From Candidatus Poriferisocius sp. (lineage in GTDB: Bacteria > Actinomycetota > Acidimicrobiia > Acidimicrobiales > Bin134), in contig OZ244918.1 of NCBI GenBank assembly GCA_965221865.1, positions 1,318,724-1,382,723 of the forward strand: a stretch of 64,000 bases of DNA. Direction: 5' to 3'. The notes beneath the pieces are model-generated. The model was not told the origin of the DNA. It saw nothing but the letters and a program-made list of their open reading frames with translations, and did not search any database. The translations under genes were made by a program, and so were the position numbers. This document shows, piece after piece, positions 1 to 17,256 of the stretch (position 1 is its first letter; each line of letters starts with the position of its first letter).

Positions 1-198
1 TAAAGCCAGCACGTTAGGATCGTCCATTCGTACTTCAGATCGCGCATGATCGCGCGATGTCCATGTCTTACCTGTACCTCTTGCCCCTTGAATCAGCACT
101 GCGCCACGTCGCTGTAAAGCCAATCGAACTTCCTCATCAACAACCCGCTTCCGATAACCGGGCATCGACAACACGTTTGGCGAGTTTGCCTTGCTCAT
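1..198 (-). CDS. AAA+ ATPase, DUF4143-type; only the N-terminal 66 codons are here and the gene runs off the left edge
   Basis: My translation from the ATG at 198 on the minus strand is MSKANSPNVLSMPGYRKRVVDEEVRLALQRRGAVLIQGARGTGKTWTSR... It has a Walker A motif (GARGTGKT) and the same N-terminal layout as the full-length paralog at 56554-57822. It is missing from the ORF track because no stop falls inside the window. Confidence 0.55.
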   Translation of the reverse strand, partial: MSKANSPNVLSMPGYRKRVVDEEVRLALQRRGAVLIQGARGTGKTWTSRDHARSEVRMDDPNVLAL

Positions 199-222
199 AT
201 AGCTATCGTACTAAATGAAGAA

Positions 223-262
223 TTTTTATCTTTAGTTTTAGGGATTTTTTATCTTTAGTTTT
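223..262. repeat. 17-nt perfect direct repeat tttttatctttagtttt in two copies (223-239 and 246-262)
   Basis: Read directly from the sequence. It lies in the AT-rich spacer just upstream of the minus-strand ATPase start at 198. Confidence 0.8.
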
Positions 263-286
263 GTGGAATCTGAGTGGTTGATTAAC

Positions 287-379
287 TCAACACAGGGTAA
301 ACGGATTTAGTACTGGCACATCAAAGCGTTCAAAGTCACGTGGTAGTTCAGAAACAACATTGGTGTCAAGAAGGTACAT
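287..379 (-). pseudogene. vapC (PIN-domain toxin) remnant with an internal deletion; 30 codons remain
   Basis: The minus-strand ATG at 379 lies 7 nt after the antitoxin stop. The translation is MYLLDTNVVSELPRDFERFDVPVLNPFTLC*. MYLLDTNVVSEL is the canonical VapC N-terminus and includes the first catalytic Asp. Full-length VapC proteins are about 130 aa. Confidence 0.6.
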
Positions 380-386
380 AGAAGGA

Positions 387-665
387 CTATTCCAAAATCA
401 AAGGTTCTCTTTGATGCATCTCCTGCCGCAGTGGCGTCAACGATTCTGTGCGACCTTCAGATGCTAGAAGCAACTCCTTCAGGCTTGGCTGCGCCCTATC
501 AACAAGGCGATACCAATGGTCGATAGGGACGACCACAGCCATTTCTACTCCTCGTTTGGAGACAACTTGGGGGCCTTCAACCAAGCTGGTTTCTAGTAAC
601 TCGCTAAATCGCGCCTTTGCCTCCTGTACTTGCCAAACTTTTCTTGTCGAATCTTTTTGCATACT
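387..665 (-). CDS. Type II antitoxin, Phd/YefM-like (VapB-type)
   Basis: The ORF track gives ...MQKDSTRKVWQVQEAKARFSELLETSLVEGPQVVSKRGVEMAVVVPIDHWYRL..., which is a typical Phd/YefM fold signature. I placed the start at the internal ATG (665), which follows an aggaag Shine-Dalgarno sequence. Confidence 0.65.
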   Translation of the reverse strand, partial: SMQKDSTRKVWQVQEAKARFSELLETSLVEGPQVVSKRGVEMAVVVPIDHWYRLVDRAQPSLKELLLASEGRTESLTPLRQEMHQREPLILE

Positions 666-910
666 ACTTCCTAACTGTTTTCTGATATGTGGCAAGTTCT
701 AGTGGTGGTCGCGACATAGTTGATTGTAGTCGGTTTGGAAATAGACTAAAGGTTGGAGATTTGCAATCCGATCTCGCAGCTCAGAGATTTCTAGCGTGCT
801 GTCAGTCCTCATTTCTCCAGACACGCCTTTCTATGCTGCTTTTTGCTGTAACAGATATTAGCAGGAGTTGTCGCTGCATCAAGAGAGAAAAATGCTAGTG
901 GATTGAATAC

Positions 911-976
911 GTGCGATGTGCGGTATTGATGTGCGCTACAAGTCAATCCTGTGCGATGTGCGGTGTTCGAGTGCGC
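911..976. repeat. Two 26-nt imperfect direct repeats (911-936 and 951-976) spaced 40 nt apart; possible regulator binding sites
   Basis: The copies are gtgcgatgtgcggtattgatgtgcgc and gtgcgatgtgcggtgttcgagtgcgc, identical at 22 of 26 positions. They sit immediately upstream of an extended -10 element. Confidence 0.7.
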
Positions 977-982
977 GTTTTC

Positions 983-991
983 TGTTATAAT
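983..991 (+). promoter_or_regulatory. Extended -10 promoter element TGtTATAAT
   Basis: The sequence tgttataat occupies 983-991. An in-frame GTG at 998 lies 6 nt downstream of the hexamer, which is consistent with a leaderless transcript. Confidence 0.4.
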
Positions 992-997
992 CACAAA

Positions 998-2278
998 GTG
1001 GCTTGGGATAAAGAACTGCCTCAAAATCCTTTTACACCTGATTTTGGAATAAGACCCAATCGTATGGTGGGCACAGATGCATTATTAGACGAAATTTCAA
1101 GTTCTTTGGTAGCAGGACCACGCAATATCGGATTCACTAGAGTTCTGATTGGGCAGCGAGGGTCAGGTAAGACTTCTCTACTGTCTGAAATAGGCGAGCA
1201 GGCATCGCAGCACGGTTTTCTGGTTATAAGCGTTGATGCGGCCACTAGCGGTTTGCCTCAACGGATTATTGCCAAAACACCATCAGCAGTTCGAAAACTG
1301 GCAGACACTGGTTTTAGAGGCAAAAACAGATTGAGTAATCTTGGTGTTGAGCCTTTGAGTTTCGGCTGGGATCGAACAGATACTGGCGATCCTGCAACGG
1401 ATTTGCACTCCCACTTAGACCTTCTAGCAGATCGGGCTGCAGAGAGAGGCTTCTCTGTGTTGTTGACTGTTGATGAACTGCACGCTGGAGACAGAGAGGA
1501 ACTGCGTAGACTGTCCGCTGATTTGCAAGACATCATCAAGATCAATCAGAAACCTTTAGCTCTGCTCAGCGCAGGTTTGCCTCAAATCAAATATACGATT
1601 TTGAGAGATATAAAAATGACGTTTTTTCACAGATGCATGAAAAACGATACCCCTATTACGAGTTATAGTGATGCTTGGAAGTGTTTGCGTTTCACAGTAG
1701 AAAACGCTGGGGGAAGCATTGATGATGATGCGCTTGCAGAGTTGGCTCAAGCGTGTGACAATTCTACGCCTTACCGATTGCAGAGTATTGGTTACCACGC
1801 TTGGGAACTTGCCGACGCCCCATCTCGTAGTATCACAATGCAATCTGTTAGCGCTGCTATCCGCTTATCAGACGCAGAGGTAGATGAAAAAATCCTAACT
1901 CCTATGTGGTACGACATGGGGGAGATTGAACAAGAATACTTGGCTGTTGTCGCCCGACTAGGAGGGAAAGCGCATCTGCAAGATGTCAAGCAACGCATGC
2001 CGCACGTGTCAAGGAAAAATTTCAACTTGGCTAGAGACAGGTTAGAAGACGAGGGACATCTCAGAGTGTGTGAAAACACAAAAACAGTGCAAATGATTGG
2101 TGCATTAACACTGGAACATGTTACGAAACAACAAGAAATCGACTTTTTCAATGAACAAGAGCGAGAAACACCTGTTGTAGTGGCACAAGGTATGATTTGT
2201 AATGATTATATGCCTGTAGCGCAGGCACGCTGCGTATTGCCTCAAGGACATTCAGGGCGGCATAGGTCACGAAAATAA
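998..2278 (+). CDS. P-loop ATPase of the ORC/Cdc6 / Arch_ATPase (STAND-like) type with a C-terminal winged-helix domain
   Basis: Features seen: the N-terminal motif NPFTPDFGIRPNRMVG, Walker A GQRGSGKTS, Walker B LLTVDELH, and a C-terminal wHTH-like stretch LQDVKQRMPHVSRKNFNLARDRLEDEGHL. The ORF track starts at 911, but those codons simply translate the direct repeats. GTG at 998 is my preferred start. Confidence 0.6.
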   Translation: MAWDKELPQNPFTPDFGIRPNRMVGTDALLDEISSSLVAGPRNIGFTRVLIGQRGSGKTSLLSEIGEQASQHGFLVISVDAATSGLPQRIIAKTPSAVRKLADTGFRGKNRLSNLGVEPLSFGWDRTDTGDPATDLHSHLDLLADRAAERGFSVLLTVDELHAGDREELRRLSADLQDIIKINQKPLALLSAGLPQIKYTILRDIKMTFFHRCMKNDTPITSYSDAWKCLRFTVENAGGSIDDDALAELAQACDNSTPYRLQSIGYHAWELADAPSRSITMQSVSAAIRLSDAEVDEKILTPMWYDMGEIEQEYLAVVARLGGKAHLQDVKQRMPHVSRKNFNLARDRLEDEGHLRVCENTKTVQMIGALTLEHVTKQQEIDFFNEQERETPVVVAQGMICNDYMPVAQARCVLPQGHSGRHRSRK

Positions 2279-2424
2279 TCGTTGCTGTGTTGCACTTCTC
2301 AGCCCATACAAGAAGCTAATCTGCACCAGCTACACCTTCTTCCTCATTATCTATCGCTGCCATCACGTCACCCAAACACAGAGCTAACAACCTCTAAGGA
2401 CACTACACCTAGTATTGAACGGGT

Positions 2425-2454
2425 TTGACGGAGCAGTGAATTTTGCTCTAGTTT
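2425..2454 (+). promoter_or_regulatory. Putative promoter (ttgacg, 18-nt spacer, tagttt) placing the transcription start at or near the GTG start of the methyltransferase
   Basis: The -35-like ttgacg is at 2425-2430 and a TANNNT-type -10 (tagttt) is at 2449-2454. The GTG at 2462 follows 7 nt later, and no Shine-Dalgarno sequence lies between them. Confidence 0.3.
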
Positions 2455-2461
2455 TACTCGG

Positions 2462-5400
2462 GTGCCCGGGCCGTCGGATCAGCAAATGCGGGAATACTTG
2501 GACGCTGGCGATTTCAACGGCTTATTTCGACTACTGGGCTGGGATAACCCCATTGAGGGGCTAACGGCGACAGCTGAGGCCGAACACTCGGAGTGGACCG
2601 CCACGTCAGTGGCCGATAAGCGGGGTGTGACAGTGTGGCTGGTGGAAGCAGACAAGATTCCACCCCGGTCGGTTCAACACCAGATAGTGAAAGCAGCTAA
2701 GCGGTATTCGCGGGATCAACTTATGGTGTTTGCCTCAACAAAGACACAACTTTGGCTGTGGCCCGAGCAACGTCCCTCTGGGGTAGGCCACCGGTTGGTC
2801 GACCACCATTATCACCCCCACCACAGCAACGATGCCCTACTTCAGCGGCTGCACGATGTGTGTTTCACCCTGGCCGAAGAACCGAAGCTCACCGCAACAA
2901 AGGTGCTCGAACGTGTGCGCCGGTCTTTCAACGTTGAGAAGGTGACAAAATTTTTCTTCCGAGAGTTCAAAAAGCACCACGAGCAACTAGCAACTCAAAT
3001 TGAGGGTATACCTCGGCTAGACGATCAGCGTTGGTACGCATCGGTGCTAATGAACCGTCTAATGTTTGTGTACTTCATCCAGCGCAAGGGCTTTGTGGCT
3101 AACGATACCGGCTACCTCCGTAACCGGCTGACCATGGTGCGAGAGCGCTTGGGGAAAGACCAGTTCTACAGCTTCTTCCGCCAGTTCCTGCTACCACTGT
3201 TCCACGAAGGGCTGGGCAGCCCGCCCCCAGTTCGTCGCTATGGCGACGACCCGGTAATAGAGGAGATTATCGGCGAGGTGCCCTATGTAAACGGTGGCAT
3301 ATTTGAGAGCCACCGGCTTGAAGAGACCTACGACATCCAGATTCCAGATACAGTATTTGAATCCCTGTTTGATTTCTTTGACGAATGGCGTTGGCATCTT
3401 GACGAGCGTCCCAGTGGTCATGACAAAGAGATCAACCCTGATATTTTGGGGTTCATCTTTGAGCAGTACGTCAACAAAAAACAAAAGGGGGCCTACTACA
3501 CCAAACCCGATGTGACCGGCTATATGGCTACCTCGACCATCATTCCTGCTTTAGTAGATCGGCTGGTGGATGCTGGCTTAGCTGATCCCTGCGAACTGCT
3601 GCCCAACAGTGGCGACGATTACCTGCACGATGCTATGGGATATGGCTGCGATAAGCCTCTGCCCGAGGGCGACTTGCCGCCCAGCGAGTTCCCCGACGCA
3701 ACACTGGAGATCGCCCTGCCTGGTGAACGGTGGTGCGATGTAACTCACCGCCGCAAGCGTTATGCCGAACAAAAAGAACTGGTGGACTTTGGCAAGGTAG
3801 CTAACATCAACGATACCATCACCCAAAACTTAGATATTGCTGCGTTGCTGGCCGATTATTTCTACACTTTGACCTCGGCCGATGAATGCCAACGCGCTTT
3901 TGAGGTGCTGCGCTCGCTAACCGTTTGCGATCCAACAGTGGGATCAGGCGCATTTCTTCTTGCCGCACTTGACGTGTTAGATCCTCTCTACAGCACAGTA
4001 TTTTACCGCGCTGAAGAGATTGCTGTTGCTGGGGGGGGGGGGGGGCAACCCGCATTCTTGGCCGAAGCTCGAACCCATCCCAGCAAACGCTATTGGCTGC
4101 TTAAAACTCTTTGCCTAAACAACCTTTACGGCGTGGACCTCATGGCCGAGGCCGCCGAAATTGCCAAGCTGCGGCTGTTTTTGAAACTAGCCGCTCAGCT
4201 TAATGACCACACCCAAATCGAACCGCTGCCCGACCTAGATTTCAACATCAAAAGTGGAAACCTTTTGGTAGGCATTGCCGATGAAGATGACATCAAAAGA
4301 CGATTTTCAGATAGAGGAGTACTGCCGTTTGGTTTGGATCCAGCTATGGATGCCGCTCAATCAGTTGCTGCCGCCTATGACGACTTTATAGCTGCCCAAG
4401 CTGCTGAAACCGGTGCAGAAGGCGAACAACACGCTAAAGGCTTGTTACAAGGCAAAATCAAAGCTATCAGCCAACAAGTCGACGCGGCACTCTATGAAAT
4501 GCGAAACGAAAGCCAAAACTTTGAGGAATGGCGAAAATCGCACCAGCCGTTCCACTGGTTTGCCGAGTTCCCCACCGTCTGGCGCAACGGCGGCTTTGAT
4601 GTAATCATCGGCAACCCACCTTATATCGCCGTCTCAAAAAAGAAACGCGACCAGTTCAACTACAAGTGGGTCGGGTACAAAACCGAAAACTGCCCAGACA
4701 TTTATGCCGTATGCGCAGAACGAGCCTCAACCCTGCTCAACAATCGGGGTCGCTTTGCGATGATAGTAATGCACTCGTTGTGTTTTGGGGAAAAATATGT
4801 CTCTCTACGATCTTATCTAAGTGAACATTTTCCCTGCATTTGGGTTTCCTCTTTTGCTCGTATACCTGATTGTCTGTTTTATGGTAGCGCTAAAGTGCGT
4901 AATTCTATTATTATAGGATCACAATACAATGCAAAAAAAATATTTATAACTCGATGTCAGAGATGGTTGACTGAAAGCCGATCTTATTTATTCCCTCAGC
5001 TTAAGTATGCACAAATGCAAAGTGAGCTTCAAAGGAATGATAAGTTCAAAAGATGGCCTTTTTGTGACTCGCAATCAACTATACAAGCATTCTCATTACT
5101 ACATCAGAGTCAAAAAAATATCAATGACTCACTTATTCTAGATTCTCAATTCAAACTTGCGGTAGCAGATAATGCAGGGTATATGATAGGCATATACCCT
5201 GATCCGCCTTTAGATATTCTTGAAGATGGATCTAAAGAACTTTCAAAAAAGTATAACTGGCTTTATTTTTTGAATAGCATCGAGAGAAATATTGCTAGAT
5301 TAGTTCTCAACGGACGCTGGGGATATTTGTGGTGGCTAATGTGGGATGATGAATATCATGTCAAATGTAATGTCCTAACTCGCTTTCCAGCCGACATCAA

Positions 5401-5650
5401 AGGCTTGACAAGCTTAAATACCTCTGAGCAGTTGATAGCCCTCGCAGAACAGCTCAATCAAGAACTGCCTCTACATCTTGCTTATAAGAAAAATGCCAGT
5501 AGAAAAGTAGCTCGTCTTGACATAAATAAGTGCCGTCACATTACTGATGAGGCGGATTGGCTACTGGCTCAGGCTTGGGGATTGACGCGGGAGCAATATG
5601 AGGCGGCTGGCAACCTGCGTGACAGGATGACGTTTGGTAACAGGGACTAA
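2462..5650 (+). CDS. Large N6-adenine DNA methyltransferase (Eco57I / PglX / DrmMI-like, gamma-class) with a C-terminal target-recognition region
   Basis: The SAM-binding motif I DPTVGSGAFLLAAL is at about 3930. The catalytic motif IV is GNPPY, with the NPPY codons at 4613-4624. The protein is 1062 aa and shows no recognisable nuclease motif. Its stop lies 3 nt before the next gene. Confidence 0.85.
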   Translation: MPGPSDQQMREYLDAGDFNGLFRLLGWDNPIEGLTATAEAEHSEWTATSVADKRGVTVWLVEADKIPPRSVQHQIVKAAKRYSRDQLMVFASTKTQLWLWPEQRPSGVGHRLVDHHYHPHHSNDALLQRLHDVCFTLAEEPKLTATKVLERVRRSFNVEKVTKFFFREFKKHHEQLATQIEGIPRLDDQRWYASVLMNRLMFVYFIQRKGFVANDTGYLRNRLTMVRERLGKDQFYSFFRQFLLPLFHEGLGSPPPVRRYGDDPVIEEIIGEVPYVNGGIFESHRLEETYDIQIPDTVFESLFDFFDEWRWHLDERPSGHDKEINPDILGFIFEQYVNKKQKGAYYTKPDVTGYMATSTIIPALVDRLVDAGLADPCELLPNSGDDYLHDAMGYGCDKPLPEGDLPPSEFPDATLEIALPGERWCDVTHRRKRYAEQKELVDFGKVANINDTITQNLDIAALLADYFYTLTSADECQRAFEVLRSLTVCDPTVGSGAFLLAALDVLDPLYSTVFYRAEEIAVAGGGGGQPAFLAEARTHPSKRYWLLKTLCLNNLYGVDLMAEAAEIAKLRLFLKLAAQLNDHTQIEPLPDLDFNIKSGNLLVGIADEDDIKRRFSDRGVLPFGLDPAMDAAQSVAAAYDDFIAAQAAETGAEGEQHAKGLLQGKIKAISQQVDAALYEMRNESQNFEEWRKSHQPFHWFAEFPTVWRNGGFDVIIGNPPYIAVSKKKRDQFNYKWVGYKTENCPDIYAVCAERASTLLNNRGRFAMIVMHSLCFGEKYVSLRSYLSEHFPCIWVSSFARIPDCLFYGSAKVRNSIIIGSQYNAKKIFITRCQRWLTESRSYLFPQLKYAQMQSELQRNDKFKRWPFCDSQSTIQAFSLLHQSQKNINDSLILDSQFKLAVADNAGYMIGIYPDPPLDILEDGSKELSKKYNWLYFLNSIERNIARLVLNGRWGYLWWLMWDDEYHVKCNVLTRFPADIKGLTSLNTSEQLIALAEQLNQELPLHLAYKKNASRKVARLDINKCRHITDEADWLLAQAWGLTREQYEAAGNLRDRMTFGNRD
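4031..4045 (+). repeat. Homopolymeric G15 tract inside the methyltransferase ORF, encoding the Gly run in AGGGGGQ
   Basis: I counted the tract directly: gct, then 15 g, then caaccc. It lies between motif I and motif IV and is currently in frame. Confidence 0.9.
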
Positions 5651-5653
5651 CCA

Positions 5654-8600
5654 GTGCCGCTGATTTTAGACAACATCGACTCTTCGCTTGAAGAGACGAT
5701 GCTCAAATCGCTGGCATCATCACACTCACTAGATGCAGCAGTAGGATACTTCAACCTTCGCGGATGGCGGCTTATTGCCAATGCGGTAGACGCGTTACCT
5801 CGCCAACAAAGTAACCAACCCAAAGTGCGTCTGCTAGTAGGTATGACCGAAAATCCCACCGACGAAATGCGCCGCTTAATGCGCCTACGCCCTACACAGC
5901 CGGTTACCAACGAAATAGCCGAACAACACCGCAACAAAGTCATAAAAGAACTGCGAGCCCAGCTCCAAGTGGGCTTGCCCACCGCCCAAGACGAAGCCGC
6001 ACTACAACAACTACGCCAGCAAATAGCCACTGGCGATGTAGAAATACGGCTGTTTCTAGCCCACCGCCTCCACGCCAAGCTCTACCTCTGCCACCGTGAC
6101 GACACTGCGGCACCCAGAGTGGGTTATGTAGGGTCGTCCAACCTCACCAAAGCAGGACTGCGGGAACAAGGCGAGCTAAACGTAGACGTACTCGACACCG
6201 ATGCCACAACCAAACTCGCTAACTGGTTCAACGACCGCTGGAACGACCAGTTCACCGTGCCTGCCAACCCTCAACTAATCAACCTGCTAGACGAGTCGTG
6301 GGCATCCGAAAAGCTGCTAGACCCATACCTGGTATACCTCAAAATGGCCTATCACCTATCGTCTGAAGCCCGTGAAGGGCTCATACAATACGGCCTGCCA
6401 GCATCAATGGCCGAAAAACTGCTGGACTTTCAGGTAGCCGCAGTAAAAATTGCTGCCCGAATCGTCCATCAGCGGGGCGGAGCCATGGTGGGTGATGTAG
6501 TTGGGCTAGGCAAAACAATAGTGGGCACCGCCATAGCACGGCTGCTGCAAGAAGAAAACGGCTTCGAAACCCTCATCATATGTCCCAAAAACCTAGTGGC
6601 CATGTGGGAATCGTACCGTCACGAGTACCGCCTCCACGGGCGGGTGCTGTCACTGTCGATGGCCACAAAAGAGTTACCCAGCATGCGGCGACACCGGCTG
6701 GTGCTTGTAGACGAATCGCACAACCTACGCAACCCCAAACGAAAGGACTACCAAGTTCTTCACGACTACATCACTGCCAACGACTCTAAAGTGTTGCTGC
6801 TTACCGCCACTCCTTACAACAAAGAATTCGCAGACGTAGCAGCACAAATCGCCCTGTTCACAAGACCCGATACCGACTTAGGCATTCGCCCAACACAAGC
6901 AATCGCCGAACACACCGAAGCTGAGTTTGCCGCGCTGTGCGAGGGGCAAACATCCACGTTGGCAGCATTCCAGAAATCAGATCACCTTGGCGACTGGCAA
7001 GCGCTGATGTCGCAGTTTCTGGTTAGGCGCACCCGCCGCTTCATTCAAGACAACTACGCCCGCCAAGACGAGAAGGGTCGCCCCTACTTAACTTTTGGTA
7101 ACGGCGGGCGTTTCCACTTCCCCGAACGCCAAGCACATCCAGTAGAGCGGGAAGTAGCACCCAGCGATCCTGCTGCGGCAATGATGAGCCCAAACACCAT
7201 CGATGCCATCGCCAACTTGTTGCTGCCCCGCTACAACTTAGCCCGTTACCTCAACCCAAAAGAGACCCCAACCGAAGCTGAACAGGCGGTGATAGATGAC
7301 CTCCATAACTCGGCCAACGGCAACCTCAGCGGATTCAATCGGATTATGATGTTCAAACGTCTCACTTCCTCGGGGCCAGCATTTCTAGCCACCCTGCGCC
7401 GCCACGCACTCCGCAACCTTGTTGCCCTCCACGCTATTAACCATCAAGAACCACTACCAGTGGGCTCGGTAGACAACTCACTATGGTCGGCTGAGTTAGA
7501 TGCCGAAGAAGGCGATCTGTTTGAAGAAGGACTGTTCAGCCCCAGTGAAGTGCCCGATATCTCAGTACCAATGCGAGCATACCAAAAACTAGCCGAAACC
7601 CGACATGGCCGAGTGCGCTGGCTCAGACCCGAACTGTTCACCGAAGAATTTGGCGATGCGTTGCGCACCGACACTCAGGCCATCAAGGAGTTGCTTAGCG
7701 AATTCGGTGCTTGGAATGCCAAACATGATGGCAAAATAGCCTCGCTAATGGAGCTAATCACCCGAAAACACCCTACAGAAAAAGTGCTGGTGTTCACCGA
7801 AGCAGCAGACACTGCGGCCTATCTAGACGAGGAGCTGTCCCGGCGAGGGTTGGAGGATGTAGCCGCGGTAACCGGGAACTCCGAGAACCCTACCGCGCTG
7901 GCCTGTCGTTTCTCGCCCCAATCAAACCAGGGTGTAGATGCAGGCCGAAACCAGCCCGAGTTACGAGTGCTAATCTCAACCGACGTTTTATCGGAAGGCC
8001 AAAACCTGCAAGATGCCCGCATAGTGGTGAACTACGACCTGCCTTGGGCCATCGTACGGTTGGTGCAACGAGCGGGTCGTGTGGATCGCATCGGTCAGCA
8101 AGCCAAAACCGTGCTGGTCTACTCGCTAATGCCATCTGGGTCGGTAGATGAAGAAATCAACCTCCGGAGCCGTATTCGTGGGCGGCTAGAAGAAAACGCC
8201 GAGCTGCTGGGCTCCGACGAGAAGTTCTTTGGCGACGATACTGAGCGCGCAGTCATCTCGGGACTTTATGACGAGAACTCTGATTACCGGTTTACCGATG
8301 GCGGTGAAGAGGTAGATCCAGTGTCTATGGCCTACGAAATCTGGCGCCAAGCTGCCGAAAACTACCCAGACATAGCTAAACAAGTGGAGGCTCTGCCCAA
8401 TGTAGTGTACGCCACGATGGCGAAACAGCCCGGCGGTTTGCAAGAAGGACTGCTTGCGGGAGTGGTAGTACATTCGCAAACAGTGAGCGGAGCAGATGCT
8501 TTCGCATTCACAGACATCGACGGCGAATCGCAACATATCACTCCTCAAGAAGCGCTAAGAACTACCTATTGCACACCCGAGACCAAGCCTGCTAATCGTC

Positions 8601-8977
8601 TAGAAGACCACCACGACATGGTGGCAATTGCGCTTGATGGTCCGTTGCGAGCGCCCCCAAACAAAGCTACCGGTGCGCTGCTAGGCGTGAGGGCAAAGTG
8701 TTGGCAAAAGCTCAACGACCACCGCGCCACCATGACACCAAGCCTATTGGTAAACCCCGAAGAGCTAGACGCAGCCCTCGATACTATTACCCAGCGTCCC
8801 CTGCTTGAAGCTGTCAAACAAAAACTGTCCAACGCTATCCGTAACCGCACCCCCGAAGATTTGGCCGCGCTGGTAATCGACCTCCACAAAGACAACCAAC
8901 TCTGCGTACCAGTCTCCCAAAATAACACGCAAGCCGAGCCCAGCATCATCTGCTCGATGGGACTCCAACCCAAATAG
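5654..8977 (+). CDS. Fusion protein: N-terminal PLD-family (single HKD) nuclease domain, SNF2/DExH helicase and a C-terminal domain of about 300 aa
   Basis: The HKD motif is LHAKLYLCHRDD...VGSSNLT (residues about 139-165). Helicase motifs are I GLGKT, II DESH, III TATP, and VI QRAGRVDRIGQ in the Helicase_C part. Confidence 0.85.
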   Translation: MPLILDNIDSSLEETMLKSLASSHSLDAAVGYFNLRGWRLIANAVDALPRQQSNQPKVRLLVGMTENPTDEMRRLMRLRPTQPVTNEIAEQHRNKVIKELRAQLQVGLPTAQDEAALQQLRQQIATGDVEIRLFLAHRLHAKLYLCHRDDTAAPRVGYVGSSNLTKAGLREQGELNVDVLDTDATTKLANWFNDRWNDQFTVPANPQLINLLDESWASEKLLDPYLVYLKMAYHLSSEAREGLIQYGLPASMAEKLLDFQVAAVKIAARIVHQRGGAMVGDVVGLGKTIVGTAIARLLQEENGFETLIICPKNLVAMWESYRHEYRLHGRVLSLSMATKELPSMRRHRLVLVDESHNLRNPKRKDYQVLHDYITANDSKVLLLTATPYNKEFADVAAQIALFTRPDTDLGIRPTQAIAEHTEAEFAALCEGQTSTLAAFQKSDHLGDWQALMSQFLVRRTRRFIQDNYARQDEKGRPYLTFGNGGRFHFPERQAHPVEREVAPSDPAAAMMSPNTIDAIANLLLPRYNLARYLNPKETPTEAEQAVIDDLHNSANGNLSGFNRIMMFKRLTSSGPAFLATLRRHALRNLVALHAINHQEPLPVGSVDNSLWSAELDAEEGDLFEEGLFSPSEVPDISVPMRAYQKLAETRHGRVRWLRPELFTEEFGDALRTDTQAIKELLSEFGAWNAKHDGKIASLMELITRKHPTEKVLVFTEAADTAAYLDEELSRRGLEDVAAVTGNSENPTALACRFSPQSNQGVDAGRNQPELRVLISTDVLSEGQNLQDARIVVNYDLPWAIVRLVQRAGRVDRIGQQAKTVLVYSLMPSGSVDEEINLRSRIRGRLEENAELLGSDEKFFGDDTERAVISGLYDENSDYRFTDGGEEVDPVSMAYEIWRQAAENYPDIAKQVEALPNVVYATMAKQPGGLQEGLLAGVVVHSQTVSGADAFAFTDIDGESQHITPQEALRTTYCTPETKPANRLEDHHDMVAIALDGPLRAPPNKATGALLGVRAKCWQKLNDHRATMTPSLLVNPEELDAALDTITQRPLLEAVKQKLSNAIRNRTPEDLAALVIDLHKDNQLCVPVSQNNTQAEPSIICSMGLQPK

Positions 8978-9020
8978 CCTAGAACCCAGCACATACTTTG
9001 CTTGATATAATTGAGATTAC

Positions 9021-9041
9021 TTGACATTTTATTGATGTCAA
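9021..9041. promoter_or_regulatory. Inverted repeat ttgacat-N7-atgtcaa overlapping a -35-like TTGACA; candidate operator for the RHH antitoxin
   Basis: A perfect 7-bp palindrome was read from the sequence, about 40 nt upstream of the antitoxin start. A strong Shine-Dalgarno sequence (aaaggagg) lies at 9068-9075. Confidence 0.35.
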
Positions 9042-9078
9042 CACACTTAATTAGCTTCTAACTGCTAAAGGAGGCCGC

Positions 9079-9300
9079 ATGAACCAAATAACTGCTAGGA
9101 TTTCTGATGAATTAGTTGAAACACTAGATGCAGTTGCCCAAGATTTAAGGCGCAGTCGAGCTGATGTTGTTCGCCAAGCTTTGGAACACTACTTAGAGGA
9201 CTATAGCGATCTCAAAGTTGCTCTTGAACGTCTCAGAGATCCAACTGACCCGGTGCTTGACTGGGACCAAGTCAGACATGAGCTACTCGATTCGGATTAA
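9079..9300 (+). CDS. Ribbon-helix-helix (CopG/RelB-like) antitoxin
   Basis: The translation MNQITARISDELVETLDAVAQDLRRSRADVVRQALEHYLED shows the classic RHH pattern. The gene overlaps the downstream toxin gene. Confidence 0.75.
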   Translation: MNQITARISDELVETLDAVAQDLRRSRADVVRQALEHYLEDYSDLKVALERLRDPTDPVLDWDQVRHELLDSD

Positions 9301-9538
9301 ACGCAGCGCAACCAAAGATTTAACGCAAATTACTCACAAAGATCACAAACGAATTATCTATGCTATAAACCGACTTGGCGAACATCCACACATGGGCTAC
9401 CTATTAAAAGGAGATTTACGGGGACTGCGTCGCGTACGTGTAGGTGAGTATAGAATAATTTATGAAGTCATTGATGATGAGCTAGTGGTTATCGTTATTC
9501 GAGCTGCACACCGAAGAGAAGTCTACCGCCATCATTAA
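9278..9538 (+). CDS. RelE/ParE-family toxin
   Basis: The translation is MSYSIRIKRSATKDLTQITHKDHKRIIYAINRLGEHPHMGYLLKGDLRGLRRVRVGEYRIIYEVIDDELVVIVIRAAHRREVY. I placed the start at ATG 9278 within ORF 9218-9538, which overlaps the antitoxin by 23 nt. Confidence 0.75.
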   Translation: MSYSIRIKRSATKDLTQITHKDHKRIIYAINRLGEHPHMGYLLKGDLRGLRRVRVGEYRIIYEVIDDELVVIVIRAAHRREVYRHH

Positions 9539-9770
9539 AACAGATAAAACAGTGGCTCATCATTGATTAAGCTAAATGCATTACTTAACAACAGACTTGC
9601 CAAGCCAAAAGTAAAGGCAAAACATTCAGTAAATCTCAAGCACCCATGCCTAATCAGTTTGCCTGCCACAATAGAACTGTTAAATCAGCTGCAACCTAAC
9701 CAAACCCCTAGAAGCCTAAAAACCCAACGGCTAAGATTGGCCGATGTTGATATTTGCAGAAAACCAGTTT

Positions 9771-10235
9771 ATGACAAGGCGGATGAGGATCGCCCATCTT
9801 GTGGGGACTGGCCTTTCGGCAGTCATGACAGGCGTGCTGGTGTTAACCTGGCTTCTTGTTGCCGATGCATCAGACAAGTCACCACTAGTTGCTCGATGGT
9901 GGTTACCGCTAATTGCCTTGGTGAGTTTAGGAACTTCGCTGATGCTGCAAATCCGCATCCGGGTTGATACCACTCAGTATTGTGTACAGCTTTGGCCCTG
10001 GCCTATAAAAACGAAGATTCCAGTTGCTGAAATCACAGCTGCTTGCATTGGTACGGTACGCCCATTTAGAGAGTTCGGGGGTTGGGGCTATAGGGCTAGA
10101 CCGGGCCGCAGGCTCTACAGTTTGGGTGGCCGCCACGGAGTAACCGTTGAATATCAGCACAAAAATAAACCCCGCAAGCTCACCGTAACCACGCAACAAG
10201 CGGACGGGCTGCTCAGCGCTTTGCAAAAAAATTAG
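9771..10235 (+). CDS. Hypothetical membrane protein with two predicted TM helices and a small C-terminal soluble domain
   Basis: Hydrophobic stretches are IAHLVGTGLSAVMTGVLVLTWLLV and WWLPLIALVSLGTSLMLQI. I recognise no family, and the start at the internal ATG 9771 is a choice. Confidence 0.35.
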   Translation: MTRRMRIAHLVGTGLSAVMTGVLVLTWLLVADASDKSPLVARWWLPLIALVSLGTSLMLQIRIRVDTTQYCVQLWPWPIKTKIPVAEITAACIGTVRPFREFGGWGYRARPGRRLYSLGGRHGVTVEYQHKNKPRKLTVTTQQADGLLSALQKN

Positions 10236-11326
10236 GGGCCAAGCACTCCAGCAGGGATTATCGCGACACCATTTTCATCGCGATAAGACTCTTGCCCTGA
10301 GGTGATTACAACAGTGTCTACTAGCTTTGGTCCGAGACGATCTCGCAACCAAGGCAAATGACGAGTGTCGTGGCTATCTATATCTGCTCCAAACTTAACC
10401 TCCGCAGCTAATAGCCGACCCCGATGCTCAATCACTGCATCTACCTCACGCTCATCGTTCCAAGTTCGCATATGGAATACTTTGGCATCTGCGGCCTGTG
10501 CATACACGCGAAGATCGTGAACCACCATCGACTCAAATAGGGAACCAACTAAAGCCGGTCTAGCAGAATTAGACATATCTTGTAGCTGAAAATCCTGCTC
10601 CTGCATAGACTCAGCAGACAGGCTTAGCAAATGAGCTGCAAGTGCGGTGTCTGCTAAGTGATGTTTTGGTTTGCGCTTTAGGCGACTTAAGTGACTGCCT
10701 ACGGGAAGCCAAGCTAGTTGGGGCTCTAGTATCCACATTGCCTCAAGCGTGTCACGGTAGGCAATTGTGGTAGTTTTTGCAGGTTTATCGCTCTCGCCAA
10801 AAGTAGCTGCATCGCGGATTGTTTCATAAGAAGCAGTGCTAGCGGTTGCAGCAGCATAGGCAGTTAGCCAACGAAGCAACGCAGCAGGATTGCGAACTTG
10901 ATAGCCTGCAAGAGGAAAATCATGCTCTACTAATCTGTGAATATAGCTATCTAGCAGCAAACTTCGGGCTCGGCCGCTGATGTTATGCCACCCAGGAAAA
11001 CCCCCTACTACGATCTCATCTAGATAATCCTGTTGCGTTAGTTCACAGTGCTTAACCTCTACAAATTGGTCTCCTGCAAGCAAAGATTTCAAGCTAATCT
11101 TCGACACGTTTGGATAACGCTCGGCCAAAGTGGTAGTCCACATGCGTAAAGTGATAATCCGTCCAGCGCCCGAGTGCGCGGGAGGGGTTTCTGGCAGAGC
11201 TGAACCAGTCAAAATAAATTTCCCGGGGCTGAAATCCTTATCCACAGCTCTACGCACAATGTCCCAAGACTCGGGAAAACGCTGCCACTCATCGATCAAA
11301 ATCGGCGGCTCTCCCTCTAGCAGCAA
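10232..11326 (-). pseudogene. DUF4143-type ATPase lacking its N-terminal P-loop segment (5'-truncated remnant)
   Basis: The ORF begins at (L)LLEGEPPILIDEWQRF, which is the Walker B region. Reading upstream in frame gives ...GAEVQADPR, preceded by a TGA at 11354-11356. No Walker A is encoded upstream. The C-terminal part is DUF4143-like and aligns with the paralog at 56554-57822. Confidence 0.6.
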
Positions 11327-11385
11327 GCGAGGATCGGCTTGTACTTCTGCTCCTCACATAGCCTACTTTTTCTCAGATAGGTTGG

Positions 11386-11622
11386 TTAGCCAAATGATTC
11401 CCTGACAAGCACACTGGCCTGATCGAAAACCATATCGGGAACACGCACTCCTATGGGCCTCACTACCGACTTTGAATGTGGATCCACTACAGCGGTAACC
11501 GAGCCCATCACCACCTCAACCATGCCATCGGGGAGCAACGTTAAGGTGTGCGTTACCTGACCGGTGCAATCAACCATCTGCGTAGATGCTAAGTACTTAG
11601 ACAAATCCACTAAAACCTCCAT
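11386..11622 (-). CDS. Hypothetical small protein
   Basis: This is supported only by an ORF (MEVLVDLSKYLASTQMVDCTGQ...). It is divergent from the Fur-family gene and has no motif I recognise. Confidence 0.25.
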   Translation of the reverse strand: MEVLVDLSKYLASTQMVDCTGQVTHTLTLLPDGMVEVVMGSVTAVVDPHSKSVVRPIGVRVPDMVFDQASVLVRESFG

Positions 11623-11669
11623 GTTTGTCAACAACCATAACAACCAAAGTACTTGAGTAATATGTTGTA

Positions 11670-12113
11670 ATGGCTCCGCGGCTTATCAAAACCCACGATT
11701 TAGTAGCAGCGCGCCTACGTGAAGCTAGCCAAATCTATACTAGAGGGCGCCGCGAGTTAGTAGATCTGCTTTTGAGCACCGGTCGCCCAGCAACTATCTC
11801 TGAAATACTAGAACTACACCCTCGGCTAACACAAAGCTCCCTGTACCGGAACATGGCCGACCTCGAAAACGTAGGCATAGTAAGACGGGTTGTTGGTGTG
11901 GATGACCTAACTCGCTATGAGTTCTCCGTTGACATAATCGGCCACCACCACCACACCATCTGCACCAAATGTGGCGGAGTTGACGACTTCCTAATACCTC
12001 CTGAAGCCGAAAGCAGCCTAGAAACAGCACTTGACAAAGCGTTGAGCGCAAATGGATTCCAGCCCAACTCTCACCGCCTAGACGTATACGGCACCTGCCC
12101 CAACTGTTGCTAA
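11670..12113 (+). CDS. Fur-family metalloregulator (Fur/Zur/PerR type)
   Basis: The protein has an N-terminal wHTH, a His-rich site (GHHHHTICTKCG) and paired CxxC motifs (CTKC ... CPNCC). Confidence 0.8.
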   Translation: MAPRLIKTHDLVAARLREASQIYTRGRRELVDLLLSTGRPATISEILELHPRLTQSSLYRNMADLENVGIVRRVVGVDDLTRYEFSVDIIGHHHHTICTKCGGVDDFLIPPEAESSLETALDKALSANGFQPNSHRLDVYGTCPNCC

Positions 12114-12290
12114 CCCGCTCTACGTGTTGGATCGATTATTCATACCATAGGAAAACAAAATTTTCTTGGGCACTAGGCAAAACACGCACGCCTATATATG
12201 CTGAAGTTGAACCAAACCAGCCCTTTCCCTTATACACATTGAACAAAACTACTAAGCTGCCAGTCATCTCAAGGGACGGTCATAATACAA

Positions 12291-12596
12291 ATGGAAGGCA
12301 ACTTAACCGTGACAGAAACAATTTCAGTTCACCATAACAGTCCTACCCAAATACGTAAAGACGACTATCTCTACGATTTCTCCAATCCTTTCGAAGCTTT
12401 TGATGAGGCAGTTCAACAATTAAATACAGAGCTTATCCACATTGTTGCCGGTGTTCATCCCGGCCAATTTTCTCCAACACAAGAATGGCGAAGAAGAGAT
12501 GAGAATATTCATGCCCACTTCAAACGTGTCAGCGACCATATTGTTTACGCTACCGTTTCTGCCTGCAAAGAACCCTTGTCTAGAAAAGCACGTTAA
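12291..12596 (+). CDS. Hypothetical protein
   Basis: This is supported only by an ORF in a lower-GC stretch, with no recognised motif. Confidence 0.2.
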   Translation: MEGNLTVTETISVHHNSPTQIRKDDYLYDFSNPFEAFDEAVQQLNTELIHIVAGVHPGQFSPTQEWRRRDENIHAHFKRVSDHIVYATVSACKEPLSRKAR

Positions 12597-12610
12597 GACA
12601 CTCTAACTAG

Positions 12611-12825
12611 ATAAACGATACTGCCAATAACCACTCAGACGAAAACGAACTGCGAGAGATTCACTCTGCTAACCCGCTGATCCCTGAGGAAGTTATTAGC
12701 CAGATTCAAGAGATCATTAGAGAAACAATTTCCATCGAATATTCTTGACGGGGACCGTTACCCCACCCGAGGCACTTGAAGCTTATGCAAAAGTCGTCCC
12801 AAACATGCCTGTTGTGTTTGACTAG
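12611..12825 (+). pseudogene. Fragment of a DUF2335-like (phage-associated membrane protein) gene with an in-frame TGA and a frameshift
   Basis: My translation is ...SQIQEIIRETISIEYS*RGPLPHP followed, after a frame change, by PPEALEAYAKVVPNMPVVFD*. GPLPxPExLExYxxxxP is the hallmark DUF2335 motif. The fragment has no start codon. Confidence 0.35.
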
Positions 12826-13013
12826 CTTCATCAGCGACCTACCGACAGAGTGTTTAGTGTGGTACAGTGTTTGTTCGTATCATGTCGGGTGATTGCATAA
12901 AATCAGCTATACAACAATCACCACAGAAGTTGCATTGTTATGTAAATTATGCATAAATCAAGCTATTTTTACTAACTGTTTAAAAAAATACATAACTTAT
13001 GTAAACTGCCAAG

Positions 13014-14575: not shown

Positions 14576-15226
14576 TCAGTAGGATTGGTGAATTCGGCCG
14601 TCAACAACCTCTACAACCCGGTCGCAACGCTCAGCTAACAACAGATCATGGGTTGCAAGCAGCAACCCTTGCCCATAATCAGCACTGCACCTCAAAATTA
14701 TATTAGCAACGCTTGTAGATGTGGAAAGATCGAGTTGTCCAGTGGGCTCATCTGCAAAAATAAAAGCACTCCGACCGAGAATAGCTCGACAAATTGCCAC
14801 CCTCTGGCGTTCGCCCCCGCTAAGGCGACGCAAAGGTACGTAAGGCGACACAGCAAGCCCTAATTCTCGCAGCAGTCCTAATGCTACTTTGCGATCCACC
14901 TTACGTTGGCGACCTCGAACATTGGACACCACCAAAACGTTGTCTAAAACCGAACGACGGGGCAACATCGTATCTGCCTGTGGTATCCACGACACCAACC
15001 TCTGTGCATCACATGGCTCGCCATGATAATCTGCAAACACACGCCCATAAGTAGGCTTTTCTATCCCACCAAACAAAGACAAAAGTGTGCTCTTCCCGGA
15101 ACCGCTGGGGCCTACCACTGCCACCGACTCACCTGATTGCACCTTGAAGCTCACATCAAACAGAATTGCCTTTGCAAGCCCCTTTGGGTGAAACGAAACC
15201 GACTCAACAGCTATAAAACTACTCAT
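14576..15226 (-). CDS. ABC transporter ATP-binding protein (MacB/LolD-like)
   Basis: Walker A is GPSGSGKST, the ABC signature is LSGGERQR, and Walker B is FIFADEPTGQLD. Confidence 0.9.
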   Translation of the reverse strand: MSSFIAVESVSFHPKGLAKAILFDVSFKVQSGESVAVVGPSGSGKSTLLSLFGGIEKPTYGRVFADYHGEPCDAQRLVSWIPQADTMLPRRSVLDNVLVVSNVRGRQRKVDRKVALGLLRELGLAVSPYVPLRRLSGGERQRVAICRAILGRSAFIFADEPTGQLDLSTSTSVANIILRCSADYGQGLLLATHDLLLAERCDRVVEVVDGRIHQSY

Positions 15227-16235
15227 TTACAACTTTGCTCCCACAGTTAGTTAAACCTAAATCAATAGGATTAGCTAACACCTCAGCTTCAATTATTGGC
15301 GCAAGATACACTAAAGCAGCTTCACCGCCCACAATATCTACATTTTGAACTTTTTGTGTACTGGTATATATGCAAGCAGTACCTGCTGCAGATCGTTGAA
15401 CTGCTGTGACAGGCACTAAAGACACATTGCCTAAACGTTGCTCCACCCGCACACTTAAGGCATCTACGCCAGTCGCCACCACAGCTTCTAGTGCCGACAG
15501 TGCAGTAGAAGGTACTTGCCCTTCATCGTTAAGAGCAATCTCTGTGCCATCAGGTAAAACAATCCAAGTTTGCTCCCAGCTAGAAAGCTGTTTAGAAAAA
15601 TCACGCAAATTAGCTGCTAATAATTCTGGGCGAGTTGTAAACCCAGAAGTCCTTCCAAATAGCTCTTGTCCAATCTGTACATCGCTGCTAGCAATCCATA
15701 CAGGATCAGACGGCAACCAAACAATTTTAGTGTGATCAAAATCAGAACTATCGCTTAATTCAAAACGTTGATTAAAGCTAAAAACTGCATCCGCTAGCGT
15801 AGAATCAAAGTAAGTTACTTGCTTGTCACCCGAAAACAAAATGCCTGTAGAGATCAAAATATCTGCCAGCATCTGCACATCTATCCCTCTATCGCCCTCT
15901 ACTAAAGAGCGATGAAATGGCGCTGGAGTATGCCAGCCTACAACAGGTAAAGCATCTACAGCTAAAATGGGTGTGCTTGAACTTACAGAATCGCCTGCTT
16001 CAACATATATTGCTGTTACTAAACCAGGCGTAGCAATCCAAAGACCATTAACACTACTCCATTTCATTCCTAAAGTAGCAAACGAGGTATTTGTTGCCTG
16101 CTGCTTTAGCACAGCTACTACTATGGGTTCAGGTTGAGCATCTTGAGCTAGAGGGCTTTGCGCACAACCTGCAAGCAATAGCCACAGCGCTATTACTTTT
16201 GTGATGTACTGCAAAAACCCTCTGTGAAGAATCAA
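15219..16235 (-). CDS. Lipoprotein of the membrane-fusion / periplasmic-adaptor type with a peptidoglycan-binding-like segment
   Basis: The lipobox is LLLAGCAQ. A lipoyl-like hairpin reads GLVTAIYVEAGDSVSSSTPILAVD, and a PG_binding_1-like stretch reads GDRGIDVQMLADILISTG. The gene overlaps the ABC ATPase gene by 8 nt. Confidence 0.5.
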   Translation of the reverse strand: MILHRGFLQYITKVIALWLLLAGCAQSPLAQDAQPEPIVVAVLKQQATNTSFATLGMKWSSVNGLWIATPGLVTAIYVEAGDSVSSSTPILAVDALPVVGWHTPAPFHRSLVEGDRGIDVQMLADILISTGILFSGDKQVTYFDSTLADAVFSFNQRFELSDSSDFDHTKIVWLPSDPVWIASSDVQIGQELFGRTSGFTTRPELLAANLRDFSKQLSSWEQTWIVLPDGTEIALNDEGQVPSTALSALEAVVATGVDALSVRVEQRLGNVSLVPVTAVQRSAAGTACIYTSTQKVQNVDIVGGEAALVYLAPIIEAEVLANPIDLGLTNCGSKVVNE

Positions 16236-16861: not shown

Positions 16862-17256
16862 ACACTACCGATGAACAAAACGACAGAACTGTGTATGACG
16901 AATTTCGCATCCGCCACCAACTAACCAATCTGTACCAAACCCAGCATCCGACTTTGCAGCAATCTTACAGGATTCTCAGCTTGTGTGGAACTGGCTTGAA
17001 ACACTGCTGACTGCCCACTACTCGTTTCAGCAAGTGTGGTTATGGAATGGGTGATCAGCATTAAACTACCTCCTATGTGCTGCAAAATGTGCAGATACCT
17101 CAAACGTAGCTACTACACAGCCTCAAAGCAATAAAATTTGCTGTCAAAAAGTGACACGTTTTTGGTATTTTTGACATTTGATTAACTCTAAACTATTCAT
17201 ACTTGAAAGCTATGACAGAATCTCATAACCAAGTTTGTATGCTAAAGGTATGAATA

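Follow-up and report, generated by a model that had tools for sequence, protein, structure and literature searches.

At one end of a 64 000-nt stretch of DNA from Candidatus Poriferisocius sp. (GenBank assembly GCA_965221865.1, contig OZ244918.1, positions 1 318 724 to 1 382 723 of the forward strand) lie two adjacent genes that encode a gamma-class N6-adenine DNA methyltransferase and a protein joining a phospholipase D (PLD) nuclease motif to a Snf2 helicase. The whole 64-kb stretch is called the window here, and positions are given in its own numbering. Judged from comparative sequence analysis, the two genes are a conserved and self-contained module that is inherited together across phyla. 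The pair is probably a two-subunit, ATP-dependent restriction–modification (RM) system belonging to a widespread and uncharacterised family; its restriction activity is presumed, and the ATPase gene located upstream is an unrelated neighbour. The three open reading frames (ORFs) have exactly the positions and spacings claimed for them in an earlier note on this DNA:

911–2278, forward strand: ATPase gene, 455 aa, with a C-terminal segment resembling a winged helix–turn–helix (wHTH) (ORF call)
2462–5650, forward strand: methyltransferase gene, 1062 aa (intact ORF)
5654–8977, forward strand: PLD-Snf2 gene, 1107 aa (ORF call)

The ATPase and methyltransferase genes are separated by 183 nt. The PLD-Snf2 gene begins only 3 nt past the stop codon of the methyltransferase gene, so these two are probably co-transcribed and translationally coupled. 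The GTG start codon at 5654 is backed by the invariant N-terminus of the homologs (M-P-x-I-x-D-N). Scans for promoters and terminators gave signal at or below shuffle expectation, and the operon structure is therefore deduced from synteny and from the distance of 3 nt.

Homologs of the PLD-Snf2 protein were gathered with an alignment of 22 diverse sequences, followed by a scan of one genome per GTDB species that returned at least 589 confirmed stretches; 80 loci were kept, and two more added by exact-protein look-ups bring the total to 82. The exact-sequence look-up of the window's own PLD-Snf2 product came back empty, and homologs of 83% and 63% identity were used in its place. All synteny counts are based upon tblastn searches of the three window proteins against these 82 loci, and the closest relatives of the locus are Acidimicrobiia-type metagenome genomes. 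Complete E. coli genomes gave no match to the locus by megablast, and an enterobacterial origin of the window is thus excluded.

In 76 of the 82 loci, from many phyla, the PLD-Snf2 gene has a co-oriented methyltransferase homolog next to it, and the adjacency that the earlier note had proposed to check is thus conserved. The gene order of the window occurs in 15 loci, which are Acidimicrobiia-type relatives with helicase identities of 50–83%. The reverse order, with the helicase first, is found in 61 loci from Chloroflexota, Latescibacterota, Poribacteria, Cyanobacteria, Proteobacteria, Bacteroidota, Brocadia and others; the 76 linked loci also include members of the Planctomycetota. There are six exceptions. 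In three of them the contig stops at the helicase, and in the remainder (L032, L049 and L071) the helicase is either followed by cargo ATPase genes or lies close to the end of its contig, so that these are not clear counter-examples to linkage. The identities of the two proteins co-vary across loci (Spearman 0.49, p = 4e-4). No conserved third gene is found in the window's clade. In a search of plasmid proteins the PLD-Snf2 family is present on 34 plasmids, including those of model cyanobacteria and actinobacteria.

The PLD-Snf2 protein contains the following elements:

6071–6142, forward strand: HKD nuclease motif (H140-A-K142 ... G160-S-S-N163), invariant in 22 homologs
6431–8095, forward strand: Snf2 ATPase core (Pfam; motif residues fully or almost fully conserved among 22 homologs)
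8234–8974, forward strand: family-specific C-terminal domain, aa 861–1107 (phmmer)

Its Pfam matches are PLDc_2 (aa 23–196), RE_NgoFVII, SNF2-rel_dom, ResIII and Helicase_C. The Snf2 motifs comprise the Walker A sequence GLGKT (aa 284–288), DESH (353–356) and TATP (384–387), and in the C-lobe the Helicase_C match (694–814) is accompanied by motif VI, QRAGRVDRIGQ (805–815). D353, E354, H356, A385-T-P387 and Q805 ... Q815 are invariant or nearly so among the 22 homologs. There is a single HxK triplet in the whole protein. The earlier description of one HKD motif joined to a complete SNF2 helicase is therefore upheld by the Pfam matches, the conserved residues and the single HxK. The protein matches generic Snf2 cores among the PDB sequences (Rad26, SsoRad54, Chd1 and RapA). 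An AlphaFold2 model is poor (pLDDT, the predicted local distance difference test, 64; pTM, the predicted template modelling score, 0.39) and served only to confirm the Swi2/Snf2 core, for which Foldseek returns the cores of RapA, Chd1, SsoRad54 and CSB.

The C-terminal domain (aa 861–1107) has no Pfam match. A phmmer search with this segment against 1.84 billion representatives gave 284 matches, each the representative of a cluster at 50% identity. Among the best 150 of the 284, every full-length protein (~1100 aa) has the domain at its C-terminus, and the shorter entries look like fragments.

The methyltransferase is matched in Pfam by Eco57I (PF07669, 1.2e-28), MmeI_Mtase and N6_Mtase, and contains two diagnostic motifs:

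3929–3958, forward strand: motif I, S-adenosylmethionine binding, DPTVGSGAFL, aa 490–499 (alignment of 24 homologs)
4613–4624, forward strand: motif IV, catalytic, NPPY, aa 718–721, invariant in 24 homologs

Conservation of its residues was assessed in an alignment of 24 homologs, where D490, P491, T492, G494, S495, G496, A497, F498 and L499 of motif I are all invariant. Motif I is followed by NPPY and then by the recognition domain, which is the gamma-class arrangement. The earlier assignment of a 1062-aa gamma-class N6-adenine methyltransferase with NPPY is supported both by Pfam and by this order. The AlphaFold2 model is good here (pLDDT 82.7, pTM 0.87). It predicts an N-terminal fold resembling a restriction endonuclease (REase), a helical region, the methyltransferase core, a target-recognition domain and C-terminal helices. 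The top Foldseek matches of the model are the BREX methyltransferases BrxX/PglX (9ewz and 8c45, aligned over ~1100 columns), followed by CamA, DrdV and MmeI. Among PDB sequences there is no close relative, with PglX alone detected (E 0.002). The protein is accordingly classed as a PglX/MmeI-like single-chain gamma-class N6-adenine enzyme that contains its recognition domain in the same chain and shows no nuclease signature.

A second example of the pair is carried by a plasmid of the model organism Synechocystis sp. PCC 6803:

pSYSX (locus L087) 43696–47151, same strand as the methyltransferase: ‘helicase-related protein’ WP_011153866
pSYSX 47827–51129: slr6050, ‘DNA methyltransferase’, 1100 aa, located 0.7 kb past the helicase

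The window proteins align with both over their full lengths in BLASTP (E = 0 in each case), the identity being 36% with Slr6050 (1106 columns) and 41% with the helicase (1166 columns). The two pairs belong to the same two-gene family and each lies on a single strand; that of Synechocystis differs in having the helicase first, in being plasmid-borne and in its recognition domain. A VapBC pair sits between the helicase gene and slr6050. Slr6050 is M.Ssp6803IV, to which Hagemann et al. (2018) and REBASE assign the asymmetric site GA(m6A)GGC (PMC6105098). The slr6050 deletion mutant never segregated, and the authors deemed the gene an essential orphan; the helicase-nuclease neighbour was not considered (PMC6105098). 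Failure to segregate would be expected if an active restriction partner were present. No paper was found that mentions slr6047, presumably the old-style tag of the pSYSX helicase gene. A ubiquitin-like cluster (E1, E2 and multiubiquitin) lies just downstream of the pair on pSYSX.

The pair probably functions as follows. On host DNA the methyltransferase would modify a short asymmetric site in one of its strands, and at unmethylated sites would recruit or license its PLD-Snf2 partner, which would hydrolyse ATP and translocate on double-stranded DNA. The presence of one HKD motif per chain implies, if Nuc, BfiI, SauUSI and MtsD are taken as a guide, that each active site is made from two protomers, which would have to meet in order to cut. 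Pairs of unmodified sites would probably be favoured, a preference known from Type III, Type ISP and MANTIS systems, and such a requirement would protect newly replicated daughter DNA in its hemimethylated state. Specificity could be changed by swapping the recognition domain, and slipped-strand frameshifting within a run of 15 guanines (G15) could turn the system on or off.

The nearest characterised analogue of the pair is MANTIS (MtsABCD, formerly Gao_RL, a BREX-related type 2 system). In both, an N6-adenine methyltransferase supplies recognition, and the effector has a single N-terminal HKD motif fused to an ATPase of the superfamily 2 (SF2)/Snf2 type. MANTIS methylates one strand of short asymmetric 6-bp sites; MtsD is a dimer with one shared PLD site, depends on the methyltransferase for recognition and prefers inverted pairs of sites (bioRxiv 10.64898/2026.09.23.753747). 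The only PLD-motor restriction enzymes listed by its authors are SauUSI and CglI (bioRxiv 10.64898/2026.09.23.753747). MANTIS differs in requiring MtsA (a DUF499 AAA+ protein) and MtsB (DUF3780), neither of which is present in the window; DUF499 and DUF3780 have no match in the three proteins or their neighbours. Moreover MtsC is an alpha-class DUF1156 enzyme, whereas that of the window is gamma-class, PglX-like and matched by Eco57I and MmeI_Mtase. The PADLOC profile PLD_Helicase, which we take to be that of MtsD, matches only the C-lobe of PLD-Snf2 (73 bits).

Parallels can also be drawn with other ATP-driven restriction enzymes. Type ISP (LlaGI, LlaBIII) and Type III (EcoP15I) enzymes likewise combine an SF2 motor and nuclease with a module for recognition and methylation, which leaves an asymmetric site hemimethylated, and cut only when two sites are present in a defined orientation. 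Type ISP enzymes are however single chains with an Mrr (PD-ExK) nuclease, compared with two chains, a PLD motif and a motor of the Snf2 clade in the window, and Type III enzymes have a beta-class Mod and a Res subunit with a C-terminal PD-ExK nuclease. Cleavage is also ATP-dependent in SauUSI (Type IV) and CglI/NgoAVII, where a PLD nuclease works together with a helicase-like ATPase. SauUSI differs in targeting methylated DNA through its own SRA-like domain, with no methyltransferase partner. In CglI the PLD and DEAD-Z1 motor are separate proteins, paired with a 5-methylcytosine methyltransferase.

The earlier note called the genes a minimal DISARM/BREX-like system. This is a fair description of how the pair might work, but not of its affiliation, since the scores with the curated profiles for DrmD and PglX fall well short of the cut-offs and only a resemblance is left. 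Three of the five parts of Class 1 DISARM have counterparts in the window, namely the Snf2 helicase, the Eco57I-type N6-adenine methyltransferase and the PLD nuclease. The differences are that PLD and Snf2 are here one polypeptide, that the DrmD and DrmMI scores fall far short, and that the core proteins DrmA and DrmB (DUF1998) are not found. For DrmD, the PLD-Snf2 protein scores 130 bits with NF038317 (cut-off 610) and 80 with NF038318 (cut-off 950). The sole match of a DrmA profile is to the generic helicase C-lobe of PLD-Snf2 itself (49.8 bits). PglX of BREX is the best structural match of the methyltransferase along its whole length, yet the NCBIfam profiles for BREX methyltransferases give at most 68 bits against cut-offs of 400–900, the best being NF033452 (67.8 against 500). 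In BREX type 3 and ARMADA (ArmB/ArmA) a PglX-like methyltransferase is paired with a Snf2 BrxHII-like helicase (PMC12839542, PMC12458937). The window differs from both in having no PglZ, BrxC, BrxA/B/L or YprA helicase, and in a helicase that bears an active-looking PLD motif. As the earlier note had stated for the surrounding 13 kb, none of the DISARM, BREX, Type I or Type III partners (DrmA/DrmB, PglZ, BrxC/BrxL, HsdS/HsdR, Res) was found among the scanned ORFs of the window.

Other curated profiles are no closer. The NCBIfam profile phospholipD_antiphage (NF042964) gives 133 bits with PLD-Snf2 against a cut-off of 1100, and HmaA covers its C-lobe only (70.6 bits). No Hma profile is among the 25 best of the 50 matches of the methyltransferase, nor is the single match of the ATPase to one. 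The top PADLOC match of PLD-Snf2 is C3a139 (‘HKD+Snf2’), a type III CRISPR accessory family (PMC6546367). The listed match covers the C-lobe only; on the homolog of locus L043 it extends over most of the length (aa 116–877), yet reaches only 160 bits.

The structural relationship to PglX is also the starting point for a different view of the pair, in which it would act by exclusion in the manner of BREX or DISARM, with methylation as the mark of self and phage replication blocked with no site-specific cleavage. Replication proteins would then be displaced or stalled by the Snf2 motor, the part of the PLD domain being minor or non-nucleolytic. The next-best curated helicase profiles for PLD-Snf2 (DrmD, BrxHI/II and DpdE) are in keeping with this, as is the finding that cleavage by MANTIS was not reconstituted in vitro (bioRxiv 10.64898/2026.09.23.753747). 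However, the HKD residues are invariant across the family, which argues for a nuclease site that is in use, and the PLD histidine of MANTIS is needed for restriction in vivo (bioRxiv 10.64898/2026.09.23.753747). Nor were the characteristic proteins PglZ, BrxC, BrxL, DrmA and DrmB found in the window. Exclusion alone is thus unlikely, and a system that restricts by cleavage is preferred.

A second alternative concerns the methyltransferase by itself. The PADLOC profile PDLC03628 (‘REase_MTase_IIG’) spans the entire protein (6.7e-180) and gives 1056 bits with the L043 homolog, a member with reversed gene order; it was evidently built on the methyltransferase family of this pair. Because the match runs from end to end, a classifier would probably call a one-gene Type IIG system. 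The expectation in the earlier note that no known system would account for these genes consequently holds for the DISARM, BREX and MANTIS profiles, all of which fail, but not for PADLOC, where a Type IIG profile covers the methyltransferase. Type IIG/IIL enzymes (MmeI, DrdV and Eco57I) do share a homologous gamma core, a helical spacer and a C-terminal recognition domain with it, and MmeI and DrdV are among its structural matches. They have an active N-terminal PD-ExK nuclease, require no ATP and work alone, whereas here a motor-nuclease is nearly always linked. If the methyltransferase were itself a complete Type IIG/IIL enzyme, cutting with its N-terminal domain, PLD-Snf2 would be a separate or accessory protein.

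The N-terminus is where this can be judged. The first ~120 aa are predicted to form an alpha-beta-beta-beta-alpha-beta unit of the restriction-endonuclease kind, and a weak HSDR_N similarity was noted in Slr6050 by Hagemann et al. (PMC6105098). Against this, even with the threshold at E ≤ 10 the N-terminal 140 aa have no match to a nuclease family of Pfam, MmeI_N gives no match at that threshold either, and a D...(D/E)xK triad is not conserved among the 24 homologs. The N-terminal residues that are invariant are K53, E102 and several tryptophans. The statement in the earlier note that there is no recognisable nuclease motif agrees with these results. In addition PglX/BrxX, the best structural matches, do not cleave DNA, and a self-sufficient enzyme would leave the near-obligate linkage to PLD-Snf2 (76/82) unexplained. 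Because no nuclease domain can be detected, the Type IIG label looks like a mislabel. In REBASE the Synechocystis member is entered as ‘M.’, and PglX was itself once labelled Type IIG there and later corrected (PMC12707154). A stand-alone Type IIG/IIL enzyme is therefore distinctly improbable. The family of the pair is common and already catalogued but mislabelled, and is biochemically uncharacterised; Slr6050 has its own entry in REBASE.

Two further features of the methyltransferase gene bear on how a restriction–modification pair might vary:

4787–5437, forward strand: target-recognition domain, ~aa 776–992, hypervariable, of low G+C content and replaced relative to the sister strain
4031–4045, forward strand: G15 homopolymer encoding GGGGG (aa 524–528) in a surface loop, the sole homopolymer of 8 nt or longer in the 64-kb window

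The segment 4787–5437 cannot be aligned with the locus of the sister strain (L083), while both flanks are 92–94% identical; the same break is present against L001 and L003. Its G+C content is 36.4%, compared with 52.9% for the remainder of the gene. It is the least conserved part of the protein, with a mean family identity of 0.30 against 0.57–0.63 in the core. The segment thus appears to behave as a swapped target-recognition domain, with specificity exchanged by recombination, and the proposal in the earlier note that the methyltransferase carries the specificity is strengthened by the location of a variable recognition domain within its own chain. In passing, and as genomic context for the programmed inversions that they found in this family, Milman et al. 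(2023) noted a PLD+SNF gene next to ‘Type II RM’ genes (PMC9881135). Silent recognition-domain cassettes and invertible repeats were consequently sought, and none was found in 1–13000. No study that names the methyltransferase and PLD-Snf2 pair or addresses its mechanism was found in the literature, in agreement with the earlier note.

The reading frame of the methyltransferase survives only when the G tract has a length of 12, 15 or 18; other lengths lead to a stop near aa 547–553. Runs of G9–G21 or C11–C17 are found in the homologous gene of related loci, at two loop positions; the loci with such runs include an Illumina/SPAdes contig. In the assemblies a number of these loci show a frameshift, among them that of the sister strain L083, which has a G21 run and is out of frame. 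The tract therefore suggests a candidate switch for slipped-strand phase variation, a typical signature of a phase-variable RM gene. The same tract, with its variable length and frame-shifted relatives, might point to a phase-variable epigenetic regulator (a ‘phasevarion’), with PLD-Snf2 decayed or engaged in DNA repair and no role in defence in this organism. Yet both ORFs are intact with all their catalytic motifs, the locus is set amid toxin–antitoxin and defence-candidate genes, and diversification of a recognition domain is typical of the specificity subunits of RM systems. A mainly regulatory role is for these reasons quite implausible.

The genes found with the pair vary. Where the two are separated, the gap contains AbrB/PIN or VapBC toxin–antitoxin pairs, DUF3800 or GxxExxY proteins, none of which is conserved. 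Small cargo genes are commonly seen between the genes of RM operons. An AbrB/SpoVT-type antitoxin (MIVKITSKRQVTFP...) recurs between the pair genes in L020, L024, L041, L051, L060 and L068, accompanied in most of these six loci, which are from distant phyla, by a PIN-like partner; this suggests that insertion is favoured at this point or that the genes are associated in function. A DprA-like gene (~200 aa, PF02481) is located downstream of the methyltransferase gene in 29 of the 82 loci, all in the reverse-order clade, and resembles the PsyrA/ShosA antitoxins in PADLOC. Two examples, taken from these 29 loci (L015–L079), are:

L043, 16637–17284: DprA-like gene
L044, 16714–17349: DprA-like gene

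The cargo genes found downstream of the methyltransferase gene are larger (AAA_21 ATPases, Macro, AlbA_2 and RhuM/Fic), again of a kind frequent in RM operons, and lie ahead of the DprA-like gene where that is present. The window has no DprA-like gene. It may be a third component in the reverse-order clade.

A number of points weigh against the interpretation of the pair as a two-subunit restriction system. For no family member is there a report of DNA cleavage or of restriction of phages or plasmids. Since 29 of the 82 loci carry the DprA-like gene, the module may originally have consisted of three genes. Type I, Type III and MANTIS systems usually tolerate loss of the targeting methyltransferase; because of this, lethality in Synechocystis would fit a nuclease that acts without an intact methyltransferase, or a deletion fragment still competent for targeting. 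The motif and strand of Slr6050 are known by assignment only; the recombinant protein could not be made (PMC6105098). Because the PLD-Snf2 model is poor, dimerisation and the contacts between domains are taken from knowledge of the families. Lastly, long-read metagenome assemblies are prone to errors in homopolymer length, and the ON or OFF state of single loci is thus uncertain.

More tentatively, the pair could be the type example of a still unnamed class of ATP-dependent RM system, in which a PglX-like one-strand marker is combined with a Snf2 motor carrying half a PLD site, and which would dispense with the AAA+ loaders, PglZ and YprA helicases on which BREX, MANTIS and DISARM depend. The family is present in at least several hundred species, and phase variation and exchange of specificity would be built into it. 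If so, it would be the minimal working core of the defences based upon hemimethylation, and a tractable model for discrimination between self and non-self. BREX, DISARM and MANTIS each mark one strand of an asymmetric site, and their four to six components hamper study of how this mark is safely read out. A natural version with two proteins would isolate the key step, the coupling of a PglX-type methyltransferase to a motor-nuclease. What is new is an architectural variant of ATP-dependent restriction–modification, the concept of which will not itself surprise specialists. There are practical consequences too. Classifiers probably file the family as a single-gene ‘Type IIG’, so that defence inventories and the interpretation of methylomes may be systematically off, and an active restriction partner is a plausible reason why slr6050 could not be deleted in a model organism.

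The upstream ATPase has the P-loop (Walker A GQRGSGKT), the wHTH and the 183-nt distance described in the earlier note. It matches AAA_16 and AAA_22 at E ~1e-7, near the cut-offs, and a profile search gives modest matches to ORC4, Cdc6 and ClpB at the P-loop region (E 2e-7 to 9e-3). The match to the BrxC_BrxD family of Pfam is 18 bits (E 0.0012), below the cut-off of 22.2 and confined to the P-loop. The family is small, comprising 71 homologs of about 430 aa, and those at 43–45% identity stand alone in unrelated neighbourhoods. The layout of the window including the ATPase is shared only by the sister strain L083, where the protein is 98% identical. The gap before the methyltransferase gene holds a terminator-like hairpin (weak evidence). 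The G+C content is 45.9% for the ATPase gene, 49.3% for the methyltransferase gene overall, 54.6% for the PLD-Snf2 gene and 50.3% for the window. The ATPase gene is thus lower, as the earlier note had said, but its figures of 38–45% against 55–65% were too extreme; the comparison is between 45.9% and 52.9% (methyltransferase gene outside the recognition domain) or 54.6%.

No ATPase homolog is found in any of the 82 pair loci, and on this ground the ATPase is excluded from the system. It is a neighbour within the island, and might act on its own in defence or regulation. Its membership, about which the earlier note had already expressed doubt, can be set aside in view of this count and of the homologs that stand alone. 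Three- and four-gene models of the Hma or MANTIS kind were rejected, given the 0/82 count and the different class of methyltransferase. A three-gene system in which an ORC/Cdc6-like ATPase loads the methyltransferase, as a miniature MANTIS/Gao_RL or Hma, would be in line with the adjacent and co-oriented gene in the window and L083, with its AAA+ and wHTH composition, its modest ORC4/Cdc6/ClpB and weak BrxC_BrxD matches and a layout like that of the N-terminal 480 aa of MtsA/BrxC, but it is very improbable in the face of the missing co-occurrence, the stand-alone homologs, the G+C difference (45.9% against 53–55%), the 183-nt gap with its hairpin, the lack of DUF499, DUF3780 or HmaC-type matches and a gamma-class enzyme in place of the alpha-class MtsC. 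A 26-nt direct repeat is present at 911–936 and 951–976, and the ATPase homologs begin near the motif NPFTPDFG. Together these suggest that the true start of the ATPase is downstream of 911.

The flanks of the three genes hold toxin–antitoxin genes and a truncated ATPase gene, in accord with the earlier description of surroundings rich in toxin–antitoxin modules and gene remnants:

387–695, reverse strand: ORF for a Phd/YefM-family antitoxin, upstream of the ATPase gene
9079–9538: ribbon–helix–helix antitoxin and ParE toxin pair, directly 3′ of the PLD-Snf2 gene
10232–11326, reverse strand: AAA_14/DUF4143 ATPase (PADLOC candidate PDC-S01), N-terminally truncated, profile positions 79–417 of 422
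11670–12113: Fur-family regulator, bordering the island
56554–57822, reverse strand: AAA_14/DUF4143 ATPase (PADLOC candidate PDC-S01), intact, 370 bits

Housekeeping genes are found from ~14.5 kb (14576–23447), encoding an ABC transporter, an ammonium transporter and a GlnD-like uridylyltransferase. With these genes beyond ~14.5 kb and the Fur-family regulator at the border, the variable island extends over roughly 1–12.6 kb. The segment 8971–9697 is absent from the sister locus L083, so the part containing the ParE pair is a recent insertion. Intact copies of the AAA_14/DUF4143 gene lie on either side of the pair in L083.

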